Shown here in pieces: positions 1 through 38,916 of a DNA stretch of 63,937 bases. The notes below the pieces were generated by a model. It was given only the letters and a program-made list of their open reading frames with translations. It did not search any database and was not told the origin of the DNA. Origin of the DNA: a virus (Duplodnaviria; Caudoviricetes). The position numbers and the translations under genes were made by a program. Every line of letters begins with the position of its first letter. The first letter of the stretch is position 1. The DNA lies in IMG/VR virus record IMGVR_UViG_3300037483_000247, positions 1 to 63,937 of that record; one strand, given 5' to 3'.

Positions 1-220
1 CGGCCCTCGCGGCACTCGCGGCACTCTCGGCCCTCGCGGCACTCGCGGCACTCGCGGCACTCGCGTCCCACGCGTCCCACGCGGCACTCGCGGCACTCGC
101 GGCACTCTCGGCCCTCGCGGCACTCGCGGCCCTCGCGGCCCTCGCGGCACTCGCGTCCCACGCGGCCCTCGCGGCCCTCGCGGCACTCGCGGCACTCTCG
201 GCACTCTCGGCCCTCGCGGC
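1..220. repeat. Coding 9-bp tandem repeat (CGGCACTCG/CGGCCCTCG/CGTCCCACG variants); bases 6-78 are identical to the last 73 bases of the window
   Basis: Direct inspection of both ends. Confidence 0.9.
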
Positions 221-598
221 ATCGTCGCCGGTCATCAAAAAATCACAAACCACGTCAGGCGCGTCCCATAAATGGATTACCGACAATGCGCTTTGCCGCG
301 CAAAGTACCGCAGGAGTTCGGTTGCGTCCATCCGCGCGATGATCTTGCGCTGTGAGCAAATGCCCTTATTTTCTCCAGTCGGCTCCATAATCGTGCCGCC
401 AATTTCGACCAAGCACAGCGTAGCTCCGGGCGCGTATTCAAGCGCATCAAACGGATTGCGCGAAAAGTGCAGACCCGATTCGCACATTTTAAGCGGGCCA
501 ATATATTTCAGCCATTTGCCATCGGGCGGAATGGGCGAGCCGTCGCGCAGGGTTGCGCCGACGAAATGCCATGCAAGCTGCGGTTTCTTTTTCATCAT
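1..598 (-). CDS. N-terminal part of a phage protein ([12 protein letters not shown]...[20 protein letters not shown]...) with an Ala-rich low-complexity repeat; continues across the contig junction
   Basis: Translated by hand, absent from the ORF track because it runs off the end. ATG at 598/595 after AGAAAGG; open to base 1 and reading ...[29 protein letters not shown]. Confidence 0.8.
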
Positions 599-657
599 GT
601 CCTTTCTGCCGCCAGTTGCCCGGCGGCGGGTTGCGATTAGATTGGCGAATACTGCGC

Positions 658-1962
658 TTATAGATTCGATTCCGATGCCCGGATGTAGTCGATCACCGCC
701 TCGCTCCATCCGTCGATGTGCGTCCACGCGCCATAGCCGACACCGTTCTTGTTGCTGGCGACGTTGAGGACATAGCCTTTACCTTGTGGGTCGCAGATAC
801 CGTCAGCCGCCTGCTCGTCAGTTATGACGATGATGCGATCATATTTCGTGTTAGCGTGAATAGCATTCAAAGCACCACGCAGTTCGGTGCCGCCGTGTTG
901 CTGGCTGCCATTCATTGCATCACGCAAAGCGAATCCACGACGCGGGGCAACCTGCACAACTGCATTGCTGAATGTATAGATATTCACGGACTCACAGATT
1001 TCGCGCAGCAATACGCCAAGGCCGAATCCTGCGTCCATACGAGACGCCTGCGACTTGCCGGATACCTTGTCTACCATTGAACCCGACACGTCCATGAGCA
1101 GCGTGGTATGACCAGAGAGTTTTTCCTGCGACCCGAGACACTTGAACATCAGCGGTTCGAGTATATCCTCCCACTGTGGCACGAATCGTGCGGCAGTGAT
1201 GAAACGAAACGGCAACGCGCGCTCAACGTTCAGCTCGGCGGCATAGGCGGCGACCGTGGCTTTATCAACACCCGCCTCTTGCATGTTTCGCAGATTACGA
1301 ATGAAGGCGAGCGCGAAGAGTTTCTTTTCTGCCATCAGGCGCGTGAATGCTTCTTTCTTGCCGGCGCCACCGGACAGCGCGACTTCCCACGTATCCGGCG
1401 TAACGAGTTGTCCATCAACCAATCGTTTCCAGACGGCGGCTTGAGCGTCGTCCTTGGGCTTGGCATGAGACAGGAATAGCACGTCACGTAACTTGATCGC
1501 GCCGTTGCGGTTGTACTTGGCGAGATTGTATTCGTCGAAGCGAGGAAACGCTGCGGCCAGTCCTTTTTTGACTTGGGCCGAGACTTTGCAGCGGCCATCT
1601 TTCCAGTAGATCGAAAGGAACTCACTCAACTCGTCGGCGCGTTGGATGATCTGCGGCAGCACCGCGGCAACCAATCCTTTGTGCTTCGGCAGTCGCGCCA
1701 TTTCTCTGGCAATCAGCAGCGGCACATGGCGCAGCTTCATTTTCGTACGCGCCTCGATAGCGATGGCCGCGACTTTTTCCGGTTCGACCAGAGCGATGGT
1801 TTCGGCGATGCGTTTTGCTATCGACTCGCCATCTTCATAATGTTCGTCCTCATACAATAAGCACGAAAGAACCGAACGCCGAAGCCGTTGCTCAGGATTT
1901 ATGCGTTGCGCTATTGCGCCCTCATGCGTTTTTATAGAAACACGAGCAACGTTGGTTTTCAT
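658..1962 (-). CDS. rsr: Ro60/Rsr-like TROVE-domain RNA-binding protein with C-terminal vWA domain
   Basis: THEGA N-terminus, LRHVPL, YNLAKY, PDTWEVALS, ALPFRF, vWA MIDAS DVSGSM, GGT and ITDEQ; 434 aa. Confidence 0.92.
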   Translation of the reverse strand: MKTNVARVSIKTHEGAIAQRINPEQRLRRSVLSCLLYEDEHYEDGESIAKRIAETIALVEPEKVAAIAIEARTKMKLRHVPLLIAREMARLPKHKGLVAAVLPQIIQRADELSEFLSIYWKDGRCKVSAQVKKGLAAAFPRFDEYNLAKYNRNGAIKLRDVLFLSHAKPKDDAQAAVWKRLVDGQLVTPDTWEVALSGGAGKKEAFTRLMAEKKLFALAFIRNLRNMQEAGVDKATVAAYAAELNVERALPFRFITAARFVPQWEDILEPLMFKCLGSQEKLSGHTTLLMDVSGSMVDKVSGKSQASRMDAGFGLGVLLREICESVNIYTFSNAVVQVAPRRGFALRDAMNGSQQHGGTELRGALNAIHANTKYDRIIVITDEQAADGICDPQGKGYVLNVASNKNGVGYGAWTHIDGWSEAVIDYIRASESNL

Positions 1963-2090
1963 CTTGATTTCTCCAAATATTTAATTGCGGCCTTCAGGGT
2001 GCTTATGCTGTCCTTGGCATTACCAAGCATCGTATTGCAATTCGTACAAAGCAGTCCACGAACAATCGTTTTTGTATGACAATGAAACCA
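1959..2090 (-). pseudogene. C-terminal remnant of an endonuclease VII-type HNH nuclease
   Basis: HCHTKTIVRGLLCTNCNTMLG..D....L..AIKYL matches the EndoVII C-terminal motif; the N-terminal CxxC half is missing and the upstream frame runs into the RNA hairpin. Confidence 0.65.
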
Positions 2091-2114
2091 CCCCCATCTT
2101 CGGTTAAAGGGTTT

Positions 2115-2177
2115 GCGGGGAACAGACGAATACGAGGATTTATCTCCCGAAGATGAACTCGCATCCTTCGCCACCGC
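2115..2177 (-). ncRNA. Y-RNA-like unit 3 (63 nt)
   Basis: GCGG-U-GGCGAAG...CGUCUGUUCC-CCGC; inner stem GGAUGCGAG/CUCGUAUUC; GNCGAAG motif; next to Ro60. Confidence 0.75.
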
Positions 2178-2192
2178 ATTTCAAATTACTAA

Positions 2193-2269
2193 GCCGGGAA
2201 TAAGCTGCTGCTGAGGTGTCCCTTTCGGGACTTCTTATCAAGAGAAGTATCAGCAACATTCGCCACGGC
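2193..2269 (-). ncRNA. Y-RNA-like unit 2 (77 nt)
   Basis: GCCG-U-GGCGAAUG...GCUUAUUCC-CGGC; stem UGUUGCUGA/UCAGCAGCA; inner hairpins CUUCU/AGAAG and UCCC-GAAA-GGGA. Confidence 0.75.
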
Positions 2270-2282
2270 AATTCAAACTCAG

Positions 2283-2344
2283 GGCGGGAACAAACGATTA
2301 AGGGCTTCTAATTTAGTGGATGAAACCCTCATCTTCGCCACGCC
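2283..2344 (-). ncRNA. Y-RNA-like unit 1 (62 nt)
   Basis: GGCG-U-GGCGAAG...CGUUUGUUCC-CGCC; stem GAGGGUUUC/GAAGCCCUU; starts 8 nt downstream of a -10 box. Confidence 0.75.
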
Positions 2345-2352
2345 ACAAACGC

Positions 2353-2381
2353 ATAGTTTCATATCCGCAAAGGATTGTCAA
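2353..2381 (-). promoter_or_regulatory. Leftward sigma70 promoter for the Y-RNA/Ro60/recombination operon
   Basis: TTGACA (2381-2376), 17 nt spacer ending TGA, AACTAT (2358-2353). Confidence 0.7.
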
Positions 2382-2411
2382 GCCCCTTTACACATGCCCA
2401 GGTTAAGCCGC

Positions 2412-2442
2412 TTGACAGCCTGCCGCCTTTATGCTTTATAAT
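2412..2442 (+). promoter_or_regulatory. Rightward sigma70 promoter, probably giving a leaderless mRNA
   Basis: TTGACA 2412-2417, TATAAT 2437-2442 (19-nt spacer), ATG at 2450 with no SD. Confidence 0.6.
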
Positions 2443-2449
2443 CCGGCCC

Positions 2450-2614
2450 ATGAACTACAAACAGCGATTAGAAGCGTGCCGGAAAAGGGATGAAAAAATA
2501 CGCCTCCTGCGCCGCACCGGCTGGAAAGTCAAACGGCTTGCCAGGCGTTACGGTATCACCAAGCAACGGGTAAGCCAGATCGTGAACGGCAAGGCGGCGA
2601 GGGCCAGCAAATGA
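2450..2614 (+). CDS. Small HTH DNA-binding protein (Cro/Mor-like)
   Basis: GWKVKRLARRYGITKQRVSQIV HTH pattern; first gene after the divergent promoter. Confidence 0.7.
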   Translation: MNYKQRLEACRKRDEKIRLLRRTGWKVKRLARRYGITKQRVSQIVNGKAARASK

Positions 2615-2976
2615 GCGACCTGACCATCAATATCGACATGGACAAGAAATGCGACAGGTGCGGGAAGCCTGGCGCTACGGATGCCGGTATGTGTTTGAAA
2701 TGCGCGACCAAGTTAATCACCGGAGACACCATGAAAAACGATGTAATCGACCTGACATTGATTGGCAGAAGGCTCGAACATCTGGACGGACTTTGCCGCG
2801 TCAAGCGCGCAGCTGCAGATGATTTCCGCGAAGCCTGTAAGGCAATTGGCCAAGAGGCGCGCGTCGACGCAAACGTGTTGAGCAAGTTCATCACAGCTCG
2901 AATTGCCGAGACGAGCGACAAAGCATCGAAGTCCGCCGAGCAATTGTCGCTATTGTTTACCGAGGTCGGGTTGTGA
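2611..2976 (+). CDS. Hypothetical protein: N-terminal CxxC..CxxC, C-terminal GapR/DsbA-like coiled DNA-binding region
   Basis: ATGA coupling; helical pattern resembling DUF2312 (weak). Confidence 0.45.
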   Translation: MSDLTINIDMDKKCDRCGKPGATDAGMCLKCATKLITGDTMKNDVIDLTLIGRRLEHLDGLCRVKRAAADDFREACKAIGQEARVDANVLSKFITARIAETSDKASKSAEQLSLLFTEVGL

Positions 2977-3194
2977 AATCCAAGCACCTCCGGCTCTATG
3001 AGAATCTCAACTACGGGCCGATGCCAACCCAGTTCGAGATCGACGCAATCGAACGAGAAATGCGCGGCATGATCCGCGCCAAGACTAATCGTGAAGCCGT
3101 CAATGCGCTCGGCGGACTCTGGATATGGGATAACGACCAGCAGGCGATTGCCTTCGTGGTCAAAGCGCGCAAAATGTGGGCGAGGATGAAATGA
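2973..3194 (+). CDS. Hypothetical protein
   Basis: GTGA overlap within the operon. Confidence 0.55.
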   Translation: MKSKHLRLYENLNYGPMPTQFEIDAIEREMRGMIRAKTNREAVNALGGLWIWDNDQQAIAFVVKARKMWARMK

Positions 3195-3309
3195 GCAGCG
3201 GACATATAGCGAGAGTCCAGCATGAGGCCAGCCATCACGGAGCCGGGCAACAGTGCAATCAATCGCGCTATTGGCAGGCCGGAATAGACGGCCATGAATT
3301 GGCGCGCAA

Positions 3310-3504
3310 ATGACCTGCCAGTGCCGCATCTGTCGGCTCATACGGAGAATTGAGCCGCTGCTGGAAAAAGCGAACACTGATGAGCGTGCGGCGATCCAGG
3401 AATTGCTGCTGGATTGGGAATATCACGCAACGGAATCCGCTTATTGGCGGATGAAACATTTTGGAACATGGCCTGGCATAATTACGGAGGACGGCAGGAA
3501 GTGA
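3310..3504 (+). CDS. Hypothetical protein
   Basis: Coupled ORF in the operon. Confidence 0.5.
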   Translation: MTCQCRICRLIRRIEPLLEKANTDERAAIQELLLDWEYHATESAYWRMKHFGTWPGIITEDGRK

Positions 3505-3713
3505 TCGACTGGAACGAAATCGAGACGCGCGTCAACGATACGCGCATCTTCTATCATCCTGATTGTGATTGTACGATCAAGGTGTCCACATTGCGGACGC
3601 TGCTCGCGTTGCGGAAAGAGGTTGAGATCATAGCGGCGGAGAGCACATTACCGGATGGCGATGGTGTGAACATGCCTACCCTGTTGTGGGCTGAGAGTTG
3701 GGCGCGCAAATGA
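3501..3713 (+). CDS. Hypothetical protein
   Basis: GTG start overlapping the previous stop, SD AGGA. Confidence 0.45.
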   Translation: MIDWNEIETRVNDTRIFYHPDCDCTIKVSTLRTLLALRKEVEIIAAESTLPDGDGVNMPTLLWAESWARK

Positions 3714-3867
3714 AACTCTTGATTGAAATAACCTACGAGATTGACGGTGTGCCGCCAGACGTAGGCATGCTCTACATGAGCAAAATCCCCGCATGTATCG
3801 TGAGTGAGGATGAAGATGGAACTGAAGGATGGGCGTTGCTCACCTCGAGCGTGCAGGTGATCGAGCA

Positions 3868-4083
3868 ATGACACCCTCCCAGATTCAGGAACTCCGCTAT
3901 TACGCCCGTCGCGTGCTGTCCGAGCGGCACGAACGCGAGGGAAAATGTATGAGCAAGACAGCTTATGCAAGCCGGTCAGATGCAGAACGAGCAATGCGGA
4001 GAGTGACCAGGCGGGCGGGCGTTGAGGCGTTTCGCTGCGCATATTGCAATCAGTGGCACTTGGGCGCGAGGGGTGTGCGGTGA
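3868..4083 (+). CDS. Small Zn-binding protein (C..K..Y...A.....F.C..C..WHL)
   Basis: Common phage motif FRCAYCNQWHLG. Confidence 0.6.
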   Translation: MTPSQIQELRYYARRVLSERHEREGKCMSKTAYASRSDAERAMRRVTRRAGVEAFRCAYCNQWHLGARGVR

Positions 4084-5513
4084 ATTATTCTGATTTTATT
4101 GATCGTAAATCCCAATCCGGCGCGAGGGATGGATTTGAACCGATTTGGATGCCGGATTTTCTATTCGACTTTCAGCGCGCGCTTGTTGATTGGTCGTTGC
4201 GGAAAGGGAAGTCTGCGATCTTCGCAGACTGCGGACTGGGCAAGACTCCAATGCAGCTTGTATGGGCTGAAAATGTTGTGAGAAAAACGAACAAGCCGGT
4301 GCTGATCTTGACGCCGCTTGCTGTCGGTCCACAGACGCTTGGCGAAGCCGCGAAGTTCGATATCGAAGCGCATCGTTCACGCGAAGGCGAAGTTAACCCT
4401 GGCATCAATATCACGAATTACGAACGATTGCATTATTTCAGGCCGGATGATTTCGGCGGCGTAGTCTGTGACGAAAGTTCGATCCTCAAACATTTTACCG
4501 GCGTGACGCAAAAAGAAGTCACTCGATTCATGGCGAAAGTTCCCTACCGATTGCTATGTACGGCAACCGCAGCCCCAAATGATTATTACGAACTTGGAAC
4601 GTCGAGCGAAGCGTTAGGCGCATTGGGATACAGCGATATGCTCGCACGGTTTTTCATGCAGGACGATAAAAAGAAAAGCCGCATGAATGAGGTTAAGCTG
4701 GCGCGCGAATTCCGGTCTGGATCGCATTATCAGAAGCTCGCTTACCGCGTTTCCCAACAGATAGGACAATGGCGATTGAAGGGCCATGCTGAATTGCCAT
4801 TCTGGCAATGGGTTTGCTCATGGGCTATGGCGTGCCGCAAGCCGTCTGATCTCGGTTTCGACGATTCGAATTTTATTCTGCCGCCGCTAAATGTGCGCGA
4901 CCATATCATCACGCCACAACGACCGGCAGACGGAATGTTGTTTACCGTGCCAGCATTTGGGCTTAAGGAAGAACGTGACGAACGCAGGCGCACGCTTGAG
5001 GAACGCGCTGATCTGGCGGCGAGTCTGACCGCGCACGGACGGCAGGCTATAGTTTGGTGCCACCTCAACAGTGAGGGTGACATTCTCGAAGAAACAATTC
5101 CCGGTGCCGTGCAAGTCGCTGGCGCTAATTCCGATGAGGAAAAAGAGGAAGCGTATACGGCATTCAGCGAGGGCAAAATTCGCGTGCTGGTAATCAAGCC
5201 AAAGATAGGTGCATGGGGAATGAACTGGCAGAACTGTTCTCATGTCGTGACTTTTGCCTCGCACAGCTATGAGCAATATTACCAGTCAATTCGTCGCTGC
5301 TGGCGTTTCGGGCAAAAATTTCCGGTGACTGTAGATATTATTTCCACCGAAGGCGAAGTCCATGTCAGAGAAAGCATGATTCGCAAAAGTGAAGCTGCCG
5401 ACCAAATGTTTGAGCATCTTGTAGCCAATATGAATAACGCGACGCACATCACGCGTGCCGAATATCACAAACAACCGGAGATGCCAAAATGGCTATTGCA
5501 GAACAGTGCGTGA
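4080..5513 (+). CDS. SNF2/SF2-family helicase
   Basis: ADCGLGKT Walker A, DESS motif II, TATAAPND, QSIRRCWRFGQ motif VI. Confidence 0.88.
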   Translation: MNYSDFIDRKSQSGARDGFEPIWMPDFLFDFQRALVDWSLRKGKSAIFADCGLGKTPMQLVWAENVVRKTNKPVLILTPLAVGPQTLGEAAKFDIEAHRSREGEVNPGINITNYERLHYFRPDDFGGVVCDESSILKHFTGVTQKEVTRFMAKVPYRLLCTATAAPNDYYELGTSSEALGALGYSDMLARFFMQDDKKKSRMNEVKLAREFRSGSHYQKLAYRVSQQIGQWRLKGHAELPFWQWVCSWAMACRKPSDLGFDDSNFILPPLNVRDHIITPQRPADGMLFTVPAFGLKEERDERRRTLEERADLAASLTAHGRQAIVWCHLNSEGDILEETIPGAVQVAGANSDEEKEEAYTAFSEGKIRVLVIKPKIGAWGMNWQNCSHVVTFASHSYEQYYQSIRRCWRFGQKFPVTVDIISTEGEVHVRESMIRKSEAADQMFEHLVANMNNATHITRAEYHKQPEMPKWLLQNSA

Positions 5514-11377: not shown

Positions 11378-11815
11378 TCATTCTCCCGCGCCACCATGGC
11401 GCATTACGTTCGCGGCCGATCCGCGCCGCGCGATCAATTGTTTGGCCGCCGCCATGTCGAGCGGCCGCTTGCTCGTCTCGCGCACATGCGCGAGGATCGT
11501 CGCGCTCTCAACACCGTGGTCGATATAATTGGCGACGGCGATCGCAAATTTGCCAATGCTGCGCGCGCCGCGTGAGTCATTACACCGCTTGCAGGCGGTC
11601 ACAAGGTTGCGCTCGGAGTTCGAGCCGCCCCGGCTGTGCGGGACCAGGTGATCGAGGGAGAGGATCGTCGACCCGTCCTCGATGCTGGCGCCACACCATG
11701 CGCACGCACACCCGTCGCGCAGGTAGATCGCCAGACGTTTTTCCTGGCGGATCCAATTCATTCCCTGCCAATTTCCATTGGCGCGGGCGTTGCGGGATTT
11801 GTTTTTCGAGTTCAT
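11378..11815 (-). CDS. HNH endonuclease-family protein, first gene of the leftward early block (leaderless start)
   Basis: RDG..C.WCG, DHLVPHSRGGSN...NLVTACKRCN. Confidence 0.85.
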   Translation of the reverse strand: MNSKNKSRNARANGNWQGMNWIRQEKRLAIYLRDGCACAWCGASIEDGSTILSLDHLVPHSRGGSNSERNLVTACKRCNDSRGARSIGKFAIAVANYIDHGVESATILAHVRETSKRPLDMAAAKQLIARRGSAANVMRHGGAGE

Positions 11816-11821
11816 GGTGCC

Positions 11822-11850
11822 ATTATGGCATAACGCTATAGCGCTGTCAA
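11822..11850 (-). promoter_or_regulatory. Strong leftward sigma70 promoter with operator-like palindromes
   Basis: TTGACA-17-CATAAT preceded by TG; ATG follows after 6 nt; upstream palindrome CTTGATCTAGGTCAAG. Confidence 0.75.
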
Positions 11851-11883
11851 GTTTATTTACTTGATCTAGGTCAAGAAAACGAG

Positions 11884-12057
11884 CTATTTTTGAGGGTCTG
11901 AAAGAGCCGTGTTTTCTAAGGCTTTTTTGGCCTGGCACGCCCGCCAGATCGTGGTGTAGGCTATACCTGCCCTGATCGCGGCCTGGTGCATATTGATTCC
12001 GCGTGCGACCATGCGCAGGGCTTTTTCGGTTGCTGAGGATTGTCTGGCACCCATCAT
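11884..12057 (-). CDS. Small HTH regulator
   Basis: MHQAAIRAGIAYTTIWRA HTH; SD GGAG. Confidence 0.7.
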   Translation of the reverse strand: MMGARQSSATEKALRMVARGINMHQAAIRAGIAYTTIWRACQAKKALENTALSDPQK

Positions 12058-12083: not shown

Positions 12084-12112
12084 AATATAGCGTAATGCAT
12101 TTGTGTTGTCAA
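12084..12112 (-). promoter_or_regulatory. Leftward sigma70 promoter of the HTH gene
   Basis: TTGACA-17-TATATT. Confidence 0.75.
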
Positions 12113-12130
12113 CCCCTACCTCGATGCGTC

Positions 12131-12159
12131 TTGACACCCCGCGCGCAAGGGCTCAGGAT
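12131..12159 (+). promoter_or_regulatory. Rightward promoter of the replication operon
   Basis: TTGACA-17-CAGGAT. Confidence 0.5.
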
Positions 12160-12195
12160 GCCGCTATCGCGTGCCGCCCGGTGCGCGTGTTGAAA

Positions 12196-12336
12196 CTGCT
12201 GTAAGAGGCAGAATGACGATATGTTGAATCGTTCCATGCTCGCCCTACCATCAGCGCCTGTAAGCGCGGTCTCCCTGCGCCTATCGTCGGCACTCTTACC
12301 TGATGTGAATTCGGGCGAGCTTGAAAGGATTTAACG
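12196..12336 (+). ncRNA. C4-like antisense riboregulator module A
   Basis: Upstream GTAAGAG and GACGATA are complementary to internal TATCGTC and CTCTTAC; stems GCTCGCCC/GGGCGAGC and CATCAG/CTGATG. Confidence 0.7.
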
Positions 12337-13092
12337 ATGAGCACTATTCTTGTCAAATACGAAGCCGCTCGTTATGCGCTTCAAATCGCATCGAAGATTG
12401 ATGAGGTCAAGGATATCCGCGACAAGGCTTTGGCAATGGCCGCTTACGCTCGACAAGCCAAAGATGATGACTTGATAAATTGGGCGACCGCATTAAAACT
12501 TCGCGCCGAACGTCGGGCCGGGGAGATGTTGGCGGAGTCCGAAATGAATAAAGGGGGACGTCCAAAAGAAACCGCTAACACAGCGATAGCGGTTTCCATT
12601 CCTACGCTTTCAGAACTAGGCTTATCCGATAAACAATCTTCGGATTTTCAAGCGATTGCAGCAATTCCTGAAGCAAAATTCGATAAGGCTGTCGCCAGCG
12701 GAAAAGCGACAACTGCATCATTGGTTAGATCGAGTCCGAACAAAAAAACTAAACCAGCGCCGAAAGAAAAATCCGCGCCAAAATCCAAACCAGAACCCGT
12801 CGAAGATTTAGGCGACACCATGGTGAAGGAATTGGAAGCGAACGACAAGACCATCCGCGATCAGCAGGAGTTGATCGAATCGCTCAACAAGTCCGATCTT
12901 GGTGCGGAAGTTGAAAAATGGAAGCTCAAATTCGACAAGCTCGAAGGCCGTTTGCAGCAATGTGTTACCACCAAAAATGAGGCCGAACGACAAGCCAAGT
13001 ATTCGACCGGACTGTTAGCCAAAATCCGCAAGGCATTGCGTATAGAAAAGAATTCCGAGATTCTCGAAGCGATAAGCGATCTTCGCAAATAA
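12337..13092 (+). CDS. Phage protein with a DEVKDIRDKA.A...YARQA N-terminal domain and a C-terminal coiled coil
   Basis: Recognisable phage N-terminal domain that is often fused to MTases; no MTase motifs here. Confidence 0.7.
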   Translation: MSTILVKYEAARYALQIASKIDEVKDIRDKALAMAAYARQAKDDDLINWATALKLRAERRAGEMLAESEMNKGGRPKETANTAIAVSIPTLSELGLSDKQSSDFQAIAAIPEAKFDKAVASGKATTASLVRSSPNKKTKPAPKEKSAPKSKPEPVEDLGDTMVKELEANDKTIRDQQELIESLNKSDLGAEVEKWKLKFDKLEGRLQQCVTTKNEAERQAKYSTGLLAKIRKALRIEKNSEILEAISDLRK

Positions 13093-13138
13093 TCACAGCA
13101 TCGGCCTGACGCCGAGATGGAAAAATGATATTATCTTT

Positions 13139-13232
13139 GGGCGAAACGGATAGGGTAGCTCCCGAAAAGCTGATTCATCACCAGCCTTCCGCAGTAGCCC
13201 TTTCAGTGATGACTAGCCTTGATGGAGGCGTT
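13139..13232 (+). promoter_or_regulatory. Structured leader RNA upstream of the HNH gene
   Basis: Stems GGGC/GCCC, CGGA/TCCG, GGG/CCC and GCTG/CAGC; loop TCATCAC complementary to GTGATGA and to TGATG next to the SD. Confidence 0.55.
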
Positions 13233-13766
13233 ATGCGTATTTGCTCTATAGATGGTTGCGACAAGAAACTATATGCTGCTGGCTATTGCCACACGCATCA
13301 CAGACGTATCATCGGAATAAAATATCAGTGCAGCGTGCCTGGTTGTAATGGGCGTTTTGATGCTCACGGTTTATGCACAAAGCACTATCAACGATTCCGT
13401 TTATACGGGACGCTTGATCTTCCATATCGGCCCGTAGTTCCTCTGATTGACAGGTTGCGTGCATTACTAGAGGTTACTGCATCCGGCTGTTGGGAATTTC
13501 AAGGCAATCGCAACAAAGGCGGGTATGGTCGTATTGGCGAGGGAAGGGAAAATGTTTTCCTTGCTCATCGAGTTGCATATCATTATCTCGTTACACCAAT
13601 AGATGAGTCTGTCGATGTATTGCATCGATGCGACAATCCGCCGTGTTGCAATCCTGATCATCTTTTCCTTGGATCACAATCTGACAATGCAAAGGATATG
13701 TGGGCCAAGGGTCGTGGAGTAAACCCGCCGATTAAAAAAACGAAGGTGCATCATGGCGACGCTTGA
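13233..13766 (+). CDS. HNH homing endonuclease (HNH_3 type) with N-terminal Zn repeats
   Basis: CS..GC...A.G.C..HY twice; CWEF.G...GYG; AHRVAY; LHRCDNPPCCNPDHL. Confidence 0.9.
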   Translation: MRICSIDGCDKKLYAAGYCHTHHRRIIGIKYQCSVPGCNGRFDAHGLCTKHYQRFRLYGTLDLPYRPVVPLIDRLRALLEVTASGCWEFQGNRNKGGYGRIGEGRENVFLAHRVAYHYLVTPIDESVDVLHRCDNPPCCNPDHLFLGSQSDNAKDMWAKGRGVNPPIKKTKVHHGDA

Positions 13767-15234
13767 GCTTCGCCCGCTTCAATCCGCTGCAATCGCCGCC
13801 GTATCCGAAGCGTTCAAGGCAGGTTACAAGAATGTGATGGTACAGGCTCCTTGCGGGTTCGGAAAAACGGAACTGGCAACCGCAATGTTGCTTGCTGCTG
13901 ACGAAAACATGAAACGGGCTGCCTTCATCTGTGACCGACTTTCGTTGATACATCAAACTGAAGAACGTTTCGACAAATACGGTTTGAAGTTCGGCGTGTC
14001 ACAGGCAAATCATTGGAGGGCGCAGCCGTGGCAGCGCATTCAATTGTGCAGCGTTCAGACCCTGAATAAACGACGTTGGCCGGAAGCCTCGCTCTACATG
14101 ATAGACGAAGCGCATGTTTTGCATGGGTCTGTTAAAAAGCAATTGGAAAAGCGGGAGTGTTATTCGGTTGGACTATCGGGAACTCCTACTACGCGCGGAC
14201 TCGGGAAGTATTTCGATGTCGTGGTAAACGCCGCGACCACGAATCAACTGATCGCTGACGGCCTGCTTTCACCGTATCGCATCTTTGCCGCATCCGAGCC
14301 GATGATGGACGGCGTGAAGATCATCAAGGGGGAATACGAAGAACACGAAACGGAAAAGCGTGTCCTGCCGATTGTTGGCGATGTGGTGACGGAATATCTC
14401 AAGCACGGCAACGATCAGAAGTTTATTTGCTTTGCCGTAAATGTTGCCCATGCCGAAGAAATACAAAAGCAGTTTCTCGCCGCCGGAATTATTGTAGAGC
14501 TTTACACCTATCTACAGAAGGATGCCGAGCGGCAAATATCGGTTACCGAGTTTCGCAAGCCCGATAGTTACATTCGAGGAATGATAAGCATCGAGGCGCT
14601 CACTCGCGGGTTTGATATAGCTGATATTGGCGTATTGATTTTAGCGCGGCCGTTGCGTTCGTCATTGGCTGTTCATCTTCAAATGTTCGGGCGCGTGTTG
14701 CGAACCGCAGAAGGCAAGACGCAGGCGACGGTGCTTTGTCATAGCGGAAATTGCATACGATTCTGGCATGACCAAAATGATTTCTTTGAAAATGGCATTT
14801 CAAAATTGGATGATGGCAAGCGCAAGGAAAAAAAGAAGCCGGAGAAAAAAGAAAAGAAGCCGATCAAGTGCCCCAAATGTTTTGCTGTCCACCCGCCAGC
14901 GCCGTCATGTCCGCAGTGCGGATTCATCTATCCAAAATATTCCAACGTCGAGCATCAAGCTGGTGAGTTGAAGGAACTAGCCGGAGGGCCAGCGGCGACG
15001 CGCGAGGATAAACAAGAGGTCTACTCGATGCTGCTGCATGTGGTGCGTGAGCGTGGCTACAATCCGGGCTGGGTCAATCACAAATTTAGGACTCGATTTG
15101 GCGTGTGGCCGAAGGGACTTGATGAGGTTCCGAAACCGCCAAGCCCGAAACTCATGACATGGCTCCGACACGAACAAATCAAGTGGGTGAAATCCAAACG
15201 ATTCAAAGAGGCTCCAGATGCAAGCGTTCGCTGA
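13753..15234 (+). CDS. SF2 DEAH helicase with C-terminal Zn ribbon
   Basis: APCGFGKT, DEAH, SGTP, QMFGRVLR, CPKC..CPQCG. Confidence 0.9.
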   Translation: MATLELRPLQSAAIAAVSEAFKAGYKNVMVQAPCGFGKTELATAMLLAADENMKRAAFICDRLSLIHQTEERFDKYGLKFGVSQANHWRAQPWQRIQLCSVQTLNKRRWPEASLYMIDEAHVLHGSVKKQLEKRECYSVGLSGTPTTRGLGKYFDVVVNAATTNQLIADGLLSPYRIFAASEPMMDGVKIIKGEYEEHETEKRVLPIVGDVVTEYLKHGNDQKFICFAVNVAHAEEIQKQFLAAGIIVELYTYLQKDAERQISVTEFRKPDSYIRGMISIEALTRGFDIADIGVLILARPLRSSLAVHLQMFGRVLRTAEGKTQATVLCHSGNCIRFWHDQNDFFENGISKLDDGKRKEKKKPEKKEKKPIKCPKCFAVHPPAPSCPQCGFIYPKYSNVEHQAGELKELAGGPAATREDKQEVYSMLLHVVRERGYNPGWVNHKFRTRFGVWPKGLDEVPKPPSPKLMTWLRHEQIKWVKSKRFKEAPDASVR

Positions 15235-16153
15235 GTTCGTACGCAGTGCCGGTCTGCTTGTCGATTACGTCAGCGCCGACGGGAAGTGGCATAGAGTGCC
15301 AACAGAAGATCACCCGAAGCGCAAAAACGGTTCGTACAAGTTGGCGGATGATGGTCTTGTCGGATGGGCGCAGAACTTCGCAATTCACAGCGAGCCGTTG
15401 ACCTGGCGGCCGGAGCGTGAATACCAACCCCCGAAGATTGACGGTGCTGCGGTTGCTCGGAAACGAAATGAGGATCGCCGTGCGCTCGTCAAGGCAACTC
15501 AAGCAGCCCGTGAGTTCTATCTCAGTTGCGAACCGTTGCGAGGCGGGCACCAATATCTTGAGTCTCATTGTCTGACTATGACCGGCTGCTACGGCCTGAA
15601 GCTAGATCCTGATGGCTGGCTCGTGGTTCCGATCAGACTTGACGGAAACCTTTTGAGCGTGCAGCGGATCTCGCCGGAGGGTGAAAAACGATTCTGGCCC
15701 GGCGCGAGCGTCAAGTCAGGTAGTTACCTGATCGAGCGACGTGGAGCACAAATCACGATATTGTGCGAGGGGTTGGCGACAGGGCTTGCGATATTCGCAG
15801 CTGCGCCTGCGACTCGCATCGTGGTCGCATTCAACTCTGGAAATTTGGCCAAGGTGCAGATACCCCGTCGCGGGCTGGTCGTGGTGGCTGCTGACAACGA
15901 TCACCAGACCGCGGAGAGGATAGGGCACAACCCAGGGCTGGACGCTGCCCAAGCCGCTGCTGAAGCCCTTGGTTGTGGTGTTGCCGTGCCGTTCGGCATG
16001 TCGGGATCTGATTGGTGCGATTACCGAAATGACCGTCTGCATTTCATGTGGCAGGGAAAACCGCAGGCACGAGAATCAGAGATCAAACGCGCTGTTGACG
16101 CCGAGATCGCGGCAGCGATTATGAAAAATGCGGTGTTCTTGCGCGGTCATTGA
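15218..16153 (+). CDS. Toprim-domain primase (no fused helicase)
   Basis: CEGLATG, AFNSGNL, AADND, DWCD. Confidence 0.85.
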   Translation: MQAFAEFVRSAGLLVDYVSADGKWHRVPTEDHPKRKNGSYKLADDGLVGWAQNFAIHSEPLTWRPEREYQPPKIDGAAVARKRNEDRRALVKATQAAREFYLSCEPLRGGHQYLESHCLTMTGCYGLKLDPDGWLVVPIRLDGNLLSVQRISPEGEKRFWPGASVKSGSYLIERRGAQITILCEGLATGLAIFAAAPATRIVVAFNSGNLAKVQIPRRGLVVVAADNDHQTAERIGHNPGLDAAQAAAEALGCGVAVPFGMSGSDWCDYRNDRLHFMWQGKPQARESEIKRAVDAEIAAAIMKNAVFLRGH

Positions 16154-16167
16154 AACAGGTATAGAGT
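16139..16167 (+). promoter_or_regulatory. Promoter for module B and the YdaU-like gene
   Basis: TTGCGC-17-TAGAGT. Confidence 0.5.
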
Positions 16168-16175
16168 GTTTACGT

Positions 16176-16313
16176 GGCTGTGACAAGCCTAACGAGGATT
16201 CATGTTGAACCCTGACCGCATCGTCCTTTTCAAAGTCCTTGTAAGCGTGGGCCTCCTGCGCCTTCCTCGGGAATTGTCACCTTTGGAACAGGACGATGCC
16301 GTGAAGGTTTAGC
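16176..16313 (+). ncRNA. C4-like antisense riboregulator module B
   Basis: Upstream GTGACAA and CGAGGA are complementary to internal TCCTCG and TTGTCAC; 10-bp stem GCATCGTCCT/AGGACGATGC. Confidence 0.7.
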
Positions 16314-16837
16314 ATGAGCGCGAAACCATGGATTGCGTGGTATATGGCGGACTATAGAGCCAAGACGATGCACCTATCATTTTGTGAGTCTGAAGCGTAT
16401 CGTCGATTGCTCGAAGCCTATTATTCGAGCGGTGGCCCACTCCCATCGGAACACAATGGATTGTGCAGGCTAGCATCCGCGCAAGACGAGTCTGAACGTG
16501 CTGCTGTCCGGCGAGTTGTTGGTGAATTTTTCACAGAGAACGGAGGACGATTACATCATTCTCGATGCGACGAGGAAATAGAAAAAGCGCAAGCCGCGCA
16601 CGAGCGTTGGGTCGAGGGTGGCCGCAAGGGTGGCTTGAGGTCAGCTAAAGGCAGGCTTAAGCTAGGCTTGAAGGGTGGCTTGAAAAAGGCTTGAAGCCTG
16701 GCTCAAGTAATCCACAACCACAATCACAATCACAAGCACTTTCACAAAAAGGCTCGCCGCAAACCAAAATCTTCAACCCACGTCTCCTAGTAGGTACAGG
16801 AGGAGATGAGACGGAAAACAAGAGACCTCAACGATGA
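16314..16837 (+). CDS. YdaU/DUF1376-family replication protein; stops at 16694 unless read through a -1 shift at G_AAA_AAG (~16682-16688)
   Basis: W...Y.ADY...T.HLS..E..AY..LL..YY motif; the -1 frame continues SNPQPQSQSQ... to TGA 16837. Confidence 0.7.
16632..16735 (+). repeat. Iteron-like GGCT(T/C)RA repeats followed by CACAA repeats; possible origin
   Basis: Copies at 16632, 16654, 16665, 16677, 16688 and 16700. Confidence 0.45.
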
Positions 16838-18421: not shown

Positions 18422-18447
18422 GCCCAGCCTAGATGCTGGGCTTTTTT
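18422..18447 (+). terminator. Intrinsic terminator (tR'-like)
   Basis: GCCCAGC-6-GCTGGGC-TTTTTT. Confidence 0.8.
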
Positions 18448-18459
18448 ATTGATTCCAAA

Positions 18460-19365
18460 ATGGCAAGACTGGCAACGCTTAAGCCTCGCGTGCAGGCATT
18501 ACGGCCGAGATTGGCGGCGCAATGCAAGCCGTCGCAACAAGCAGGCTACCGAATACGTGGTCGAGCGCTTATGACTTTACGGGCGCGGCACTTCCGAGCA
18601 AACCCTCTGTGCATAATGTGTCTCACGTCAGACCCACCGCGCATTACCGTCGCGATCGAACTTGACCATATCATCGCGCTGACCAACGGTGGCACGAACG
18701 CCGACGAAAATTATCAAGGTTTGTGCGAGGATTGTCATCGCATAAAGACGCTCGCTGATCTAGGCATCAAGTCCGATGCGTTCACGTTCAAAGGCCCACG
18801 CTGGAGGCTGGCTGAACGCGCACCGGAGATACAGCAACAGCAGCATGATTTCGCTGAGCTACGGTTCCCGAGCGATCTGAGTCCGTCACGCATACCCTGC
18901 ATCATGGTCTGCGGCCCGCCGAACGGCGGTAAAGGCCCATACATCAAGGCACATGCCGGCTCCAACGACGTGACGATCGAACAGGATCAGATCATGCGCG
19001 AGCTGTCAGGTGGGCCCGTGTGGGCAGCAGGGATCGAATGGCTACCCAAGGCTCTAGCCGAGCGCAACAGGCGCCTGCGAGCGCTGGCGCATGACTACAC
19101 GCACGATCGGGCATGGTTTCGGATCAATGCCCCCGATCCAGATGAGCGCGCGCTATGGGCTGAGCGACTATGTGCCACCGTGGTGCTGCTCGCGCCTCCA
19201 TTGGAGGAATGCATCCGGCGCATCAAGGCCGAGCCGTATCATGAGGGATATACCGAGCGCATGATCAAGGCTGCTGAGGATTGGTGGGCGATGAATCCGG
19301 ACATCAAGACGAGCCAAGGCGAGGGTGGATTCTGGGTAGAATTAGCGAAGCCGATCAGCGCGTGA
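18460..19365 (+). CDS. Packaging-associated HNH (HK97 gp74-like) fused to a P-loop/AAA_33-like domain
   Basis: NPLC..C, ELDHII.L..GG.N...NYQGLC..CH..KT, then VCGPPNGGKG. Confidence 0.8.
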   Translation: MARLATLKPRVQALRPRLAAQCKPSQQAGYRIRGRALMTLRARHFRANPLCIMCLTSDPPRITVAIELDHIIALTNGGTNADENYQGLCEDCHRIKTLADLGIKSDAFTFKGPRWRLAERAPEIQQQQHDFAELRFPSDLSPSRIPCIMVCGPPNGGKGPYIKAHAGSNDVTIEQDQIMRELSGGPVWAAGIEWLPKALAERNRRLRALAHDYTHDRAWFRINAPDPDERALWAERLCATVVLLAPPLEECIRRIKAEPYHEGYTERMIKAAEDWWAMNPDIKTSQGEGGFWVELAKPISA

Positions 19366-35601: not shown

Positions 35602-36197
35602 GCAACGCCTTTGCGATAGTCGAAGCATTCGAAACGGCGCTCGCTGAATTCTCGGGCGCTCGTTATGCAGTCGCCGTCAACACCGGGACTAGTGCAATCT
35701 TTTTGAGCCTCGCCTACGAATACCAGCGGGCCGGTGCGCTTGAGATTATATGTCCTGCTCATACGTTCGTTTCCGTGCCGATGGCTGTCAAGCATGCAGG
35801 CCATAAACTCGTGCTGCATGACATTGCGTGGAACGGAGCCTACAGGCTAGAGCCGTCATCCGTGATAGACGGTGCATTACGGTTCAAACGAGGCATGTAT
35901 CAACGCGGGCTGCATTGCCTGTCGTTCCATGCGCGCAAGCTGCTCAACATCGGTGAAGGTGGAGCCGTCTTGACCGATGATGCTGAGGCCGCTGCATGGC
36001 TACGCCGTGCTCGTTACAGCGGGAGGGACGCGGCGAATGGCTACAAAATTGAGAATGTCAACATGTTGGGCTGGCAACTTTATATGGTTCCGGAAAAGGC
36101 TGCTCGCGGTTTGCACTTGATGGAATACATCGCCGACGATTTGCCGGATCAGGTCATCGCGTATAACGATTTGCGCGAGTGCCCGGTATTCCAATGA
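35598..36197 (+). CDS. Compact DegT/DnrJ/EryC1/StrS sugar aminotransferase-like protein
   Basis: FE..LA...GA.YAVAVN.GT.A, SFH..K....GEGG.VLT. Confidence 0.85.
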   Translation: MSNAFAIVEAFETALAEFSGARYAVAVNTGTSAIFLSLAYEYQRAGALEIICPAHTFVSVPMAVKHAGHKLVLHDIAWNGAYRLEPSSVIDGALRFKRGMYQRGLHCLSFHARKLLNIGEGGAVLTDDAEAAAWLRRARYSGRDAANGYKIENVNMLGWQLYMVPEKAARGLHLMEYIADDLPDQVIAYNDLRECPVFQ

Positions 36198-36805
36198 GAG
36201 GCATGAAAGTTGCCATTTTTGGCAGCGGCGGGACTGCGTTGGAAACTATCGGATATCTGCACGACGACCCGCGCTACGAGGTCGTGGCAGTGGTGTCCAC
36301 GGAGCAATTTACTAATTCAGATTACGCGGAAAAGTTTAAAGTTTTTTCGCGTGTTCCGACCGAAATTGATGCCTACATAATGGCAGTTACAGATCCATCG
36401 TTGAAACGAAAGTTTGTAACAGAGAACGAGGATAAATGGATTACCTATGCACACCCGAGCGTTATTCTATCGCCGTATGCGAAAGTTGGCCGGGGATGCT
36501 GGTTTGCGCCGGGCAGTTTGATCTGCGGGGATGCCGTAATCGGTCGTTTTGCGACGTATAACATCTATGCGCAGTCTGGGCACGGATGCAAAATTGGGGC
36601 CTATTCGACCTTCAGTCCCTATGCGGAAACGTGCGGCGACTGCGAAGTGGGGGAGAGCGTGTTTTTCGGCGTGCGCGCCGTTGCAATTCCGCGCGTCAGA
36701 ATAGCGAGCGGTGCGAAAGTTTCTGCCGGCGCCGTGGTGCGGCATTCCATCATGGATGCCGTGACGGTTTACGGCGATCCTGCAAAGGCCAGGATTGCAT
36801 GTTGA
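36194..36805 (+). CDS. PglD/NeuD-like sugar acetyltransferase
   Basis: IFGSGG, hexapeptide repeats, AGAVV, G.PA. Confidence 0.85.
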   Translation: MRGMKVAIFGSGGTALETIGYLHDDPRYEVVAVVSTEQFTNSDYAEKFKVFSRVPTEIDAYIMAVTDPSLKRKFVTENEDKWITYAHPSVILSPYAKVGRGCWFAPGSLICGDAVIGRFATYNIYAQSGHGCKIGAYSTFSPYAETCGDCEVGESVFFGVRAVAIPRVRIASGAKVSAGAVVRHSIMDAVTVYGDPAKARIAC

Positions 36806-37613: not shown

Positions 37614-38008
37614 AGTTGCGCGCCGGTGAAGTTCGCTGCGAGGTCACAGTCGAGAAAATTGCGGTTGCTGGTGACGAGGGGTATCTGGAACCAGACTCGT
37701 CATACGGGACTGCGCGCGTAGTGTGGGTGCCCCTCGTAGCGCTGGCGGGAAGCCCGCCTGTAGGTGAGAGGTTCCCTGCGACGATTCAGGATGCGCTGCC
37801 GAGCCGCGCGGAGTCTACCGTGCAGGGATTGGTTGTGGCGCGGAACCAATCAGTCTGCCGCATGCGCTACAGGAACGACATAAATAGTTCCATGAGAATC
37901 ACGGTACACAGGGATGATGACGTTGTGTATGCCATAGTCGCCGGCCCCGCGCAAATTGATGGAATAAAGCAGAGAATAGAGATGGTCTTGGAGCGTGTTT
38001 CGTCATGA
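37610..38008 (+). CDS. Head closure / head-tail adaptor (SPP1 gp16-like)
   Basis: RMRYR.DI...MRI; position in the operon. Confidence 0.8.
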   Translation: MKLRAGEVRCEVTVEKIAVAGDEGYLEPDSSYGTARVVWVPLVALAGSPPVGERFPATIQDALPSRAESTVQGLVVARNQSVCRMRYRNDINSSMRITVHRDDDVVYAIVAGPAQIDGIKQRIEMVLERVSS

Positions 38009-38916
38009 ATGACTCACGCTTTTACGTGTACGTGCATAGTCGCCTACATACTGGGGAACCATTCTATGTAGGGAAAGGGTGTGCTTATCGATGGGCAAGT
38101 AAACACACCAGGACAGCTCATTGGAGAAATATCGTAGCCAAGGACGGCGGTTTTCACAATTCATTCATCGCGAGAGATATGGATGAGGAATTGGCGTTTT
38201 TGGTTGAAGTCGAGATGATCGATAAATTGCGTAGACTTGGCGTGCGATTAACAAATGCTTCAGATGGAGGAGAAGGCCCATCCGGCATGAGGCTTTCGGA
38301 GGAGACAAAGAAAAAGCTATCAATCACACATACAGGGAAGAAGCATTCGCTTGAAACGCGAGCGAAGATGTCAGCATCGCGCATCGGTAAAAATTGGTGG
38401 TCGAAAGGCAAGTCTCTGACCGCCGAAACAAGGGCAAAGATTGCAGCCGCTGGAATTGGGAGGGTGCCTACCGCAGAAACGCGAGCAAAACTATCATTTG
38501 CGAATAAGGGTAGGAAGCCGTCACCGTTAACTCTTGCGCGCGCCGCGGAAGTAAATTCTTCTAGGCCATCTCCGAAAAAGGGTAAGTCTGGACCAAAGCA
38601 TTCTGCCGAGACAAAGGAAAAGATGTCGCTTGCTCATCGTGGGCTGTTGTTTAGCGAATCTCATAAGCGCAACCTATCTATTGCGAAACTTGGGCATGCG
38701 GTTTCCGCAGAAACGCGCGCGAAGATTTCTGCGGCAAACTCTGGGAAAAGCCGAAACGTTGGGCGGAAGGCATCTGAGGAAACGAGACAGAAACTTTCCT
38801 TAGCTCATATGGGATATTGCCCCTCTGATGAGTCACGCGAAAAAATGCGAATTGCACAACTAGCGCGACGAAAAAAGGAGCGCCTGGAAATGCAAATCGA
38901 AAAGGTATCGTCATGA
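38005..38916 (+). CDS. Free-standing GIY-YIG-like homing endonuclease with NUMOD3 repeats
   Basis: FYVY.H.....PFYVGKG...R, LTN..DGGEG, many HS.ET..K(M/I)S repeats. Confidence 0.88.
   Translation: MNDSRFYVYVHSRLHTGEPFYVGKGCAYRWASKHTRTAHWRNIVAKDGGFHNSFIARDMDEELAFLVEVEMIDKLRRLGVRLTNASDGGEGPSGMRLSEETKKKLSITHTGKKHSLETRAKMSASRIGKNWWSKGKSLTAETRAKIAAAGIGRVPTAETRAKLSFANKGRKPSPLTLARAAEVNSSRPSPKKGKSGPKHSAETKEKMSLAHRGLLFSESHKRNLSIAKLGHAVSAETRAKISAANSGKSRNVGRKASEETRQKLSLAHMGYCPSDESREKMRIAQLARRKKERLEMQIEKVSS

Follow-up and report, generated by a model that had tools for sequence, protein, structure and literature searches.

The antisense RNA C4 of phages P1 and P7 is released by RNase P as a mature RNA of ~77 nucleotides, and the CI RNA of phage P4, which serves seqA/seqB/seqC immunity, has targets on both of its sides and acts by transcription termination. 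In the plasmids R1 (tap/repA, with CopA), IncB (repB/repA) and IncI-alpha (repY/repZ), control of the replication initiator is coupled to a leader peptide, with an activator pseudoknot in IncB and IncI-alpha. Here we describe two RNA elements, modules 1 and 2, in the replication operon of an uncultured sediment tailed phage, and compare them with these systems. The phage is known from IMG/VR record IMGVR_UViG_3300037483_000247, which was analyzed whole (63,937 bases, completeness rating 100%; hereafter, the window). Module 1 (12192..12341) precedes a gene for a protein of 251 amino acids (aa) at 12337-13092, and module 2 (16172..16318) lies between the stop codon of a primase-like gene and a DUF1376 gene at 16314-16694. 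Both are on the plus strand, and they score 176.1 and 134.1 bits, respectively, with R1, a covariance model of the module. The modules are two paralogous structured RNA elements with one fold. As an uncatalogued structured leader in two diverged copies the element is real, and it most likely works, as far as our analysis can tell, as a self-targeting gate that would combine the logic of C4 and CI with coupling of the plasmid type.

Both modules are built from the same four features, namely a small hairpin displaying box b and followed by box a, a conserved core, boxes a' and b', and an outer helix. A first-pass annotation of this DNA had recognized this architecture, and its description of two paralogous structured modules, each with a two-box upstream site complementary to boxes near the tip of the hairpin, was borne out, with all four features found at the positions it gave. 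In what follows, coordinates are given for module 1 and then for module 2. The small hairpin P0 (12197..12210, four pairs; 16176..16189) holds box b (GTAAGAG in the loop, 12201-12207; GTGACAA, 16180-16186) and is followed by box a (TGACGATA, 12214..12221, the complement of a'; CGAGGA, 16193..16198). The 5' arm of a long stem comes next (12222..12254, with helices P1 at 12222-12230, P2 at 12238-12245 and P3 at 12249-12254; 16203..16235, with P1 at 16203-16211, P2 at 16219-16226 and P3 at 16230-16235) and leads to the conserved core (12259..12282; 16240..16263), within which hairpin P5 forms (12264-12269/12275-12280, with a five-base loop; 16245-16250/16256-16261). The variable loop of the core has four bases, not three as annotated at first. 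A short helix, P4, was placed by hand (12256-12258/12289-12291; 16236-16238/16270-16272). Just 3' of the core lie a', a spacer and b' (12282..12299, with a' at 12282-12289 and b' at 12293-12299; 16264..16280, with a' at 16264-16269, spacer GGAA and b' at 16274-16280), after which the 3' arm closes the stem (12300..12337, with P3 at 12300-12305, P2 at 12313-12320 and P1 at 12328-12337; 16281..16314, with P3 at 16281-16286, P2 at 16291-16298 and P1 at 16306-16314). The outer helix, GTTGAAYC/GRTTTARC in both modules, covers the Shine-Dalgarno (SD) sequence and ATG of the genes at 12337-13092 and 16314-16694, much as the first-pass annotation had it: the 3' arm includes the SD of the gene (AAGGA, 12325-12329; GAAGG) and reaches the first base of the ATG, and the full fold of module 2 pairs the whole ATG. 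In module 2 the stem amounts to an inverted repeat with 35-base arms that are 80% complementary. The minimum free energy (MFE) is -52 kcal/mol for module 1 (z -3.1 to -3.6) and -63.1 kcal/mol for module 2 (z -5.1 to -6.0), the latter compared with -49.1 kcal/mol on the minus strand.

Several tests show that the likeness of the two modules exceeds chance. The conserved core, TGTAAGCGYGGNCYYCCTGCGCCT, is identical at 20 of 24 bases between the modules, and a search of the window at up to three mismatches returned only these two matches, where 100 shuffles gave an expectation of 0. Boxes b/a and a'/b' are exact complements and occupy homologous places in both modules. Each b..a combination occurs once in its module across the 63,937 bases, plus once as its complement (0.02 and 0.01 expected). 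When the 5' segment was compared with the rest of each module, a collinear two-block complement of at least 6 + 6 bases arose in 98 of 20,000 shuffles for module 1 and 82 of 20,000 for module 2. A test on duplex energy alone was weak, the observed energy being reached in 155 and 108 of 2,000 shuffles.

We also scored 50 homologous base pairs of the two modules on a hand-made, helix-by-helix structural alignment. Thirty-one pairs were unchanged, five had changed on one side, 13 had changed on both sides and one was broken. The two-sided changes were spread over P0 (1), b:b' (3), a:a' (1), P1 (1), P2 (3), P3 (3) and P4 (1), so that three of seven pairs in b:b' and one of seven in a:a' have been exchanged with pairing retained. 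The co-varying address pairing claimed earlier is thus present. The same annotation held that the addresses differ completely, which goes too far: in structural register, box b is identical at four of seven positions and box a at five of six, although complementarity is kept within each module. It had also described the two switches as not cross-talking. Calculated duplex energies agree with this part, the cognate duplexes reaching -20.0 and -19.7 kcal/mol and the crossed ones -7.7 and -9.6 kcal/mol. A designed orthogonality, however, is unsupported: since every helix covaries, and not the addresses alone, differing codes are what ordinary divergence of a paired RNA would be expected to produce, and by themselves they are no proof of such design.

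To see how the boxes might meet, we considered pairing probabilities from the equilibrium ensemble, as given by folding programs that do not score pseudoknots or kinetics. The stem of ~30 pairs (P1-P3) joins the 5' part of each module to the downstream SD and ATG, and at equilibrium the start is masked. For modules 1 and 2, the probability of being unpaired was 0.12 and 0.00 for the main AUG and 0.26 and 0.00 for the AUG of a short leader reading frame described below, which the outer helix masks as well as the gene ATG. At the tip of the hairpin, the conserved 24-base core is followed just 3' by a' and b', which are largely unpaired (b', 0.95 and 1.00; a', 0.57 over 12282-12288 in module 1 and 0.62 in module 2). 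Box b has a mean unpaired probability of 0.86 and 0.85, and box a of 0.40 (over 12215-12221) and 0.70. Nested intramolecular pairing of b/a with a'/b' had a mean probability of no more than 0.003 at 13 of the 14 transcript lengths folded (seven per module), the exception being a module 2 transcript ending at 16281, in which b:b' reached 0.59; when forced, the nested pairing lay 11 kcal/mol (module 1) and 21 kcal/mol (module 2) above the MFE. Since box a adjoins the 5' strand of P1 (0-1 bases away) while a' is ~30 pairs off, we infer from geometry that a:a' and the full stem are mutually exclusive within one molecule. The boxes are selected to pair, yet they are displayed unpaired in the resting fold and are unable to pair there, as would be expected if the partners met on separate molecules or once the stem had been opened by a ribosome. 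A genome-wide duplex scan for targets in trans revealed no gene-start site distinguishable from chance.

A single reading frame is open through each hairpin. It begins at an ATG and runs for 37 codons in module 1 (12221..12334, TAA at 12332-12334) and 36 codons in module 2 (16202..16312, TAG at 16310-16312), ending two bases and one base, respectively, before the ATG of the gene. The other two frames carry three and two stops in module 1 and three and one in module 2. In the only other copy known, which belongs to a related phage (the sister phage, below), the same frame is open from a GTG, so that all three copies keep it open. An open frame of this kind was found by chance in 0.29 and 0.28 of shuffles; allowing 1/9 for both stops being in frame, the joint chance comes to ~0.01 by our own arithmetic. 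Each copy also has an SD-like element inside its b/a boxes, ahead of the leader frame. In module 2 it is GAGG (16194-16197), within box a and four bases before the leader ATG. In module 1 it is AAGAGG (12203-12208), within box b and P0, 12 bases before the leader ATG and four bases before a mini-frame of four codons (ATG ACG ATA TGT TGA, 12213-12227) whose end overlaps the beginning of the leader frame. The GTG of the sister copy follows AAGAGG at a distance of five bases. There, a one-base insertion has joined the mini-frame, with a GTG start, in frame to the long leader frame. The peptides have diverged, and their agreement is explained by the RNA core; the leader frame, if important, would matter through the act of translation and not through its product.

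Considering these features together, we propose, tentatively and with a confidence that stops just short of even, that each module is a self-targeting translational gate made of plus-strand RNA and operated by pairing between molecules. According to the model, ribosomes would enter the leader frame only on nascent RNA, before the 3' arm exists; their passage through the frame would unzip the stem, and termination beside the gene ATG would allow the gene to be translated (translational coupling). Boxes a' and b', on a completed transcript or on a fragment cleaved from one, would then pair with b/a on new transcripts, beginning with a loop-to-loop contact between b and b'. This pairing would block the leader ribosome site, the stem would close and the gene would fall silent. 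In this way two genes of the replication operon would be under negative feedback and, since the box sequences differ between the modules, each would be expected mainly to sense its own RNA. Such logic would be that of P1, where C4 blocks icd and ant is coupled to icd, built here from an unrelated RNA.

A number of observations weigh against such a gate. Module 2 is dispensable in the sister phage, and the recognizable family comprises three copies (modules 1 and 2 and one sister copy) in two related phages. The covariation comes from one comparison, module 1 with module 2, because only three copies are known and these are from two closely related phages. Module 1 folds without strand preference (-52.0 kcal/mol on the plus strand vs. 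-53.4 kcal/mol on the minus strand). Judged by duplex energy alone, a'/b' would pair with many other genomic sites no less well than with b/a, so that specificity in trans is no more than putative. As for the leader frame, its ATG and stop are due in part to pairing in P1 (CAUG:CAUG and UUGAA:UUUAR), and only ~11 of 37 residues, by a hand count, are alike between the two leader peptides, mostly within the RNA core. Three sense codons differ between module 1 and the sister copy, and all three differences alter the residue. The SD-like element of module 1 is better spaced for the mini-frame at 12213-12227 than for the leader ATG, and the sister copy has no ATG, so that a start there would need GTG or TTG.

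Other explanations of the same features were considered. Since a single transcript carries both the boxes and the stem, the module could be a purely cis-acting two-state switch in which the long stem (off) alternates with a transient b/a:a'/b' conformer, formed during transcription or behind the leader ribosome. The closest models for such a switch are the leader-peptide/pseudoknot control of repA and repZ in IncB and IncI-alpha and the folding-kinetics control of the maturation gene of phage MS2. That a:a' and the ~30-pair stem exclude one another by geometry is what two states need, the leader frame ends beside the gene ATG, and b:b' pairing was predicted, with a probability of 0.59, for the module 2 RNA truncated at 16281. 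At the other lengths folded, however, the nested conformer was practically absent (≤0.003 at 13 of 14) and it lies 11-21 kcal/mol above the MFE; moreover, a' and b' are not in the strand that masks the ribosome site, so that their pairing would not directly free it. The folding results thus weaken the cis switch, though the programs are blind to pseudoknots and kinetics, and we regard it as unlikely while giving it some weight. Less probable still, in our view, is that the core on its long stem is an operator or processing site, bound by a phage or host protein such as a translational repressor, RNase III or, as for C4, RNase P, with box pairing as a tertiary or dimer contact. The retention of 20 of 24 core bases while the helices diverged goes beyond what a plain hairpin needs, the 35-base, 80% complementary arms of module 2 are of a size typical of RNase III substrates, and the phage encodes an RNA-binding Ro60/TROVE protein. 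On the other hand, the modules have no candidate binding protein linked to them, Rfam matches them neither to Y RNA nor to any other protein-binding family, and a protein site would leave unexplained why b/a and a'/b' are exact, covarying and unpaired complements. It would also be compatible with the self-targeting gate, e.g., as the processing step that yields the antisense piece.

The leader frames themselves, open in three copies with start and stop at conserved places, might suggest that peptides of 36-37 residues are the functional product and the RNA structure is incidental. We consider this very improbable, since the ~11 of 37 residues in common are nearly all in the core, where even third codon positions are identical; compensating changes in the helices alter residues; and, between module 1 and the sister copy, each of the three sense-codon differences changes the residue while the ATG is lost. 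Finally, an inverted repeat acting at the DNA level, as a protein-binding or recombination site, would account for the equal folding of the two strands of module 1 (-52.0 vs. -53.4 kcal/mol) and for the position of both modules at mosaic boundaries relative to the sister phage. Yet the nine G-U pairs counted over both modules would be A-C mismatches on the opposite strand, module 2 folds 14 kcal/mol better on the plus strand, and the helices overlap the SD and ATG of plus-strand genes. A chance resemblance is excluded by the core-match, b..a uniqueness and two-block shuffle tests. We accordingly find a DNA-level repeat or a chance likeness scarcely credible, the least probable of the readings considered.

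The self-targeting gate invites comparison with C4, to which the first-pass annotation had likened the modules. c4 and c4-a1b1 RNAs are covered in Weinberg et al. (2010; PMC2864571). Both families belong to Rfam clan CL00128, and membership in C4 is set by a covariance score of at least 45 bits with RF01695. A search of the window at Rfam gathering scores found no family, and searches of the 600-base stretches around the modules at E ≤ 10 returned chance-level matches to MIR949 and a CRISPR repeat only. RF01695 (C4) had no match at E ≤ 10 in these stretches or in the whole record, and RF03163 (c4-a1b1) likewise had none at E ≤ 10. The same tool recovered both RNAs in a positive control from P1 (C4, 68.8 bits; c4-a1b1, 51 bits). 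Conversely, R1 found no match in the first 50 kb of P1, the c4 region included. The modules are therefore outside the C4 family; the resemblance to P1 C4 and its a1/b1 site is one of logic and design, and the Rfam check proposed with the first-pass annotation did not identify either RNA in them. A riboswitch or ribozyme was considered and rejected, there being no Rfam match and the fold being two-state, not compact. A boxA-like reading of b' in module 1 was also discarded because it is not shared by module 2.

In P1, according to the sequence record and its annotation, the order is a1-b1 (the upstream targets), next c4, whose b' occupies a hairpin loop and whose a' occupies the junction, and last a2-b2, the C4 targets over the icd ribosome site through which icd-ant translation is repressed. 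In both systems, the antisense element and its target share one strand and one transcript; the boxes number two and are 7-8 bases long, the spacers measuring 6-7 bases in P1 and 6-7 and 4 bases here; one target box is in a hairpin loop (a1 in P1, b here), a likeness of layout only; the antisense boxes are carried by an RNA that has a long closing stem and, at its apex, a conserved hairpin; and the target overlaps the ribosome site of a frame that lies upstream and to which the gene is coupled, i.e., icd in P1 and, by our model, the leader frame here. There are also differences. The fold of C4 is a three-way junction that contains a', while b' occupies the loop of its second hairpin; in the modules only P5 is a conserved hairpin, a' is next to it within the three-pair P4, and b' belongs to an internal loop. 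Downstream, P1 has another functional target (a2/b2), whereas the modules have a single target, upstream only: there is no second target over the gene's own ribosome site, each b..a combination being present only once in the window. Here, too, the long stem masks the gene start and the leader frame crosses the antisense element. Lastly, C4 of P1 controls an antirepressor, whereas the genes behind the modules are replication genes, and the search for lysogeny genes was negative. At first it was suggested that RNA-based immunity might take the place of CI; since neither a tyrosine integrase nor a resolvase was found in the record, which is rated 100% complete, and since module 2 is absent from the sister phage, an immunity role is unsupported.

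The modules also resemble, in part, the other two systems as these are generally described. In P4, a processed RNA derived from a replication operon leader pairs with complementary sites of its own transcript, and pairing of the same kind would take place here; the modules differ from P4 CI in having one target and no terminator-like site, their stem ending instead in an SD and an ATG. As in R1, IncB and IncI-alpha, a stem buries the ribosome site of a replication gene and a short leader frame stops where that gene starts, the loop of an upstream hairpin is complementary to a distal sequence in this stem-loop, and the antisense RNA would, by our proposal, act on the leader and not on the gene. 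However, the plasmids make their antisense RNA as a countertranscript, from the opposite strand, while the complementary boxes here are on the same strand. The partner in the plasmid pseudoknot adjoins the ribosome site, whereas the distal partner in the modules is at the hairpin tip, ~25-30 bases upstream of the gene SD (12299 to 12325 in module 1 and 16280 to 16302 in module 2).

The sister phage, contig IMGVR_UViG_3300009285_000779, is 72-86% identical in DNA across the region and was the sole match to the helicase query. Its homology to the window begins at 12154, just upstream of module 1. It has no module 2: its primase and DUF1376 genes abut, and 16147-16311 of the window has no counterpart, so that module 2, on this alignment, is an insertion or a deletion relative to the sister phage. 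The HNH gene at 13125-13766 is missing as well, which is usual for a mobile nuclease gene. Since module 2 and the HNH gene are both missing and homology begins at 12154, the modules sit at mosaic joints. That module 2 is missing exactly from stop to start, and that the two keys barely cross-pair, suggests that such gates may move between phages and diversify their addresses. On this view the module would be a portable, addressable gate of ~150 bases, of a type without earlier description, that could be placed before any gene, bringing its own ribosome site, a leader frame for coupling and, at the hairpin tip, a same-strand antisense key that closes the matching lock on sister transcripts; one genome could then operate several independent feedback loops. 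This is a generalization that we think doubtful at present.

Further copies were sought with a scan for the core pattern and with R1, which was built on three sequences (effective number 1.22), and for this reason distant members may be missed. Among viral contigs, the core-pattern scan gave nine stretches, of which one, in the sister phage, was a true copy. Among genome contigs it gave at least 120 stretches; R1 found no full-length match among the 80 loci listed, and its 16 matches there at E ≤ 1 were all fragments centered on the core. The further genome loci were covered by a script for complementary boxes, which scored 130 distinct sites; of nine sites checked by eye, none was convincing. 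Metagenome contigs gave 11 stretches, with core-only R1 matches in eight and no full-length member. R1 was also run near relatives of the two downstream genes. At 13 such loci (11 further DUF1376 relatives, one relative of the 251-aa gene and the sister-phage locus that lacks module 2) no further copy was found, the matches being the two modules and the sister copy only. No further copy was found at 30 viral loci plus one additional locus (L155), or at 25 of 26 genome loci, the 26th (L193) overlapping L155 on the same contig. These searches covered loci other than the contigs of five proteins (P0003-P0007) that are 50-61% identical to the 251-aa protein. On reading, the upstream 200 bases of 14 + 6 + 2 relative loci were coding-like or unrelated. 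The sequencing runs listed for this phage include no RNA run. Contigs from a second sediment run that cover part of each module were identical to the window or differed by one letter, and thus add no variants.

The operon itself points rightward and encodes, in order, the 251-aa protein, an HNH endonuclease (13125-13766, plus strand), a ResIII/DEAD helicase (13753-15234, plus strand), a Toprim primase-like protein (15218-16153, plus strand, with its stop codon at 16153) and a DUF1376 'primosomal' protein, so that module 1 is the operon leader and module 2 fills the gap between the last two genes. The first gene (12337-13092, plus strand) belongs to no Pfam family and is assigned to phrog_33995. 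The N-terminal half of its product is widespread (2,214 proteins at E ≤ 0.001) and is fused in some relatives to a Dam-type DNA methylase domain (PF05869). The nearest relatives in genomes are from metagenome-assembled genomes of Betaproteobacteria (Sulfuritalea, Rhodocyclaceae, Propionivibrio and Undibacterium), which hints, by homology, at the host of the phage. The gene behind module 2 (16314-16694, plus strand) encodes 126 aa with a DUF1376 domain (PF07120, E 2.7e-25) and is labeled 'primosomal protein' in PHROGs. Two tandem 23-base repeats, 74% alike and rich in GGCTTG/GGCTTA, occur at its 3' end (16648-16693, plus strand) and could be iterons of a replication origin.

Upstream of module 1, 12084-12159 is a putative divergent promoter region. 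A strong leftward promoter-like site (12112-12084; near-consensus TTGACA-17-TATATT, 11/12) faces a gene for a 64-aa HTH_psq protein; on the rightward side there is a TTGACA at 12131-12136 with a weak -10 (CAGGAT, read by eye and under the scan threshold), from which the module 1 leader would start at ~12167. A weak promoter-like site (9/12) inside the end of the primase gene (16095-16122, plus strand) could give module 2 a separate transcript, and another (9/12) inside the DUF1376 gene (16380-16351, minus strand) would yield a countertranscript across module 2. The promoter scan found no minus-strand promoter-like site near module 1, and the terminator scan found no terminator-like site inside 12192-12341 or 16172-16318.

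Elsewhere, the window carries tailed-phage genes (terminase, portal, capsid and protease) and the recombination genes ERF and YqaJ. Five genes resemble homing endonucleases (HNH, HNH_3, NUMOD3 and endonuclease VII), namely the one in the operon (13125-13766, plus strand) and those at 11378-11938 (minus), 18433-19365 (plus), 38005-38916 (plus) and 1959-2174 (minus). In a 434-aa protein encoded at 658-1962 (minus strand), a TROVE domain (E 2.7e-11) is accompanied by a vWA domain of Ro60; by these domains, the protein is a Ro60/Rsr orthologue encoded by the phage. No Y RNA or tRNA-like RNA was matched by Rfam in positions 1-4100, and ARAGORN found no tRNA gene anywhere in the window. The idea that the modules might be Y RNAs was dropped in spite of the TROVE protein, since neither they nor the flanks of the TROVE gene match a Y RNA or tRNA-like family. 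In the gene list used here, no reading frame reaches 70 aa within a stretch of 767 bases (35819-36586), which gave only chance-level Rfam matches (E 0.55-6.7).

If the structure alone is real, the modules would still make up an uncatalogued family of structured leaders, fit for inclusion in RNA family databases. As a natural pair of variants, with one scaffold and two addresses (cognate duplexes of about -20 kcal/mol and crossed duplexes no stronger than -10 kcal/mol), they offer a test case for the evolution of specificity between RNAs, and the scaffold is a candidate for orthogonal synthetic riboregulators. If the self-targeting gate is correct, two genes of the replication operon of this phage would be throttled by two independent RNA feedback loops, each of them one small, self-sufficient cassette. 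The principle of same-strand antisense control known from C4 and CI would then extend from the immunity of temperate enterobacterial phages to the control of replication in an unrelated environmental phage in which no lysogeny genes were found, and would be linked there to the leader-peptide coupling by which plasmids control their own replication.

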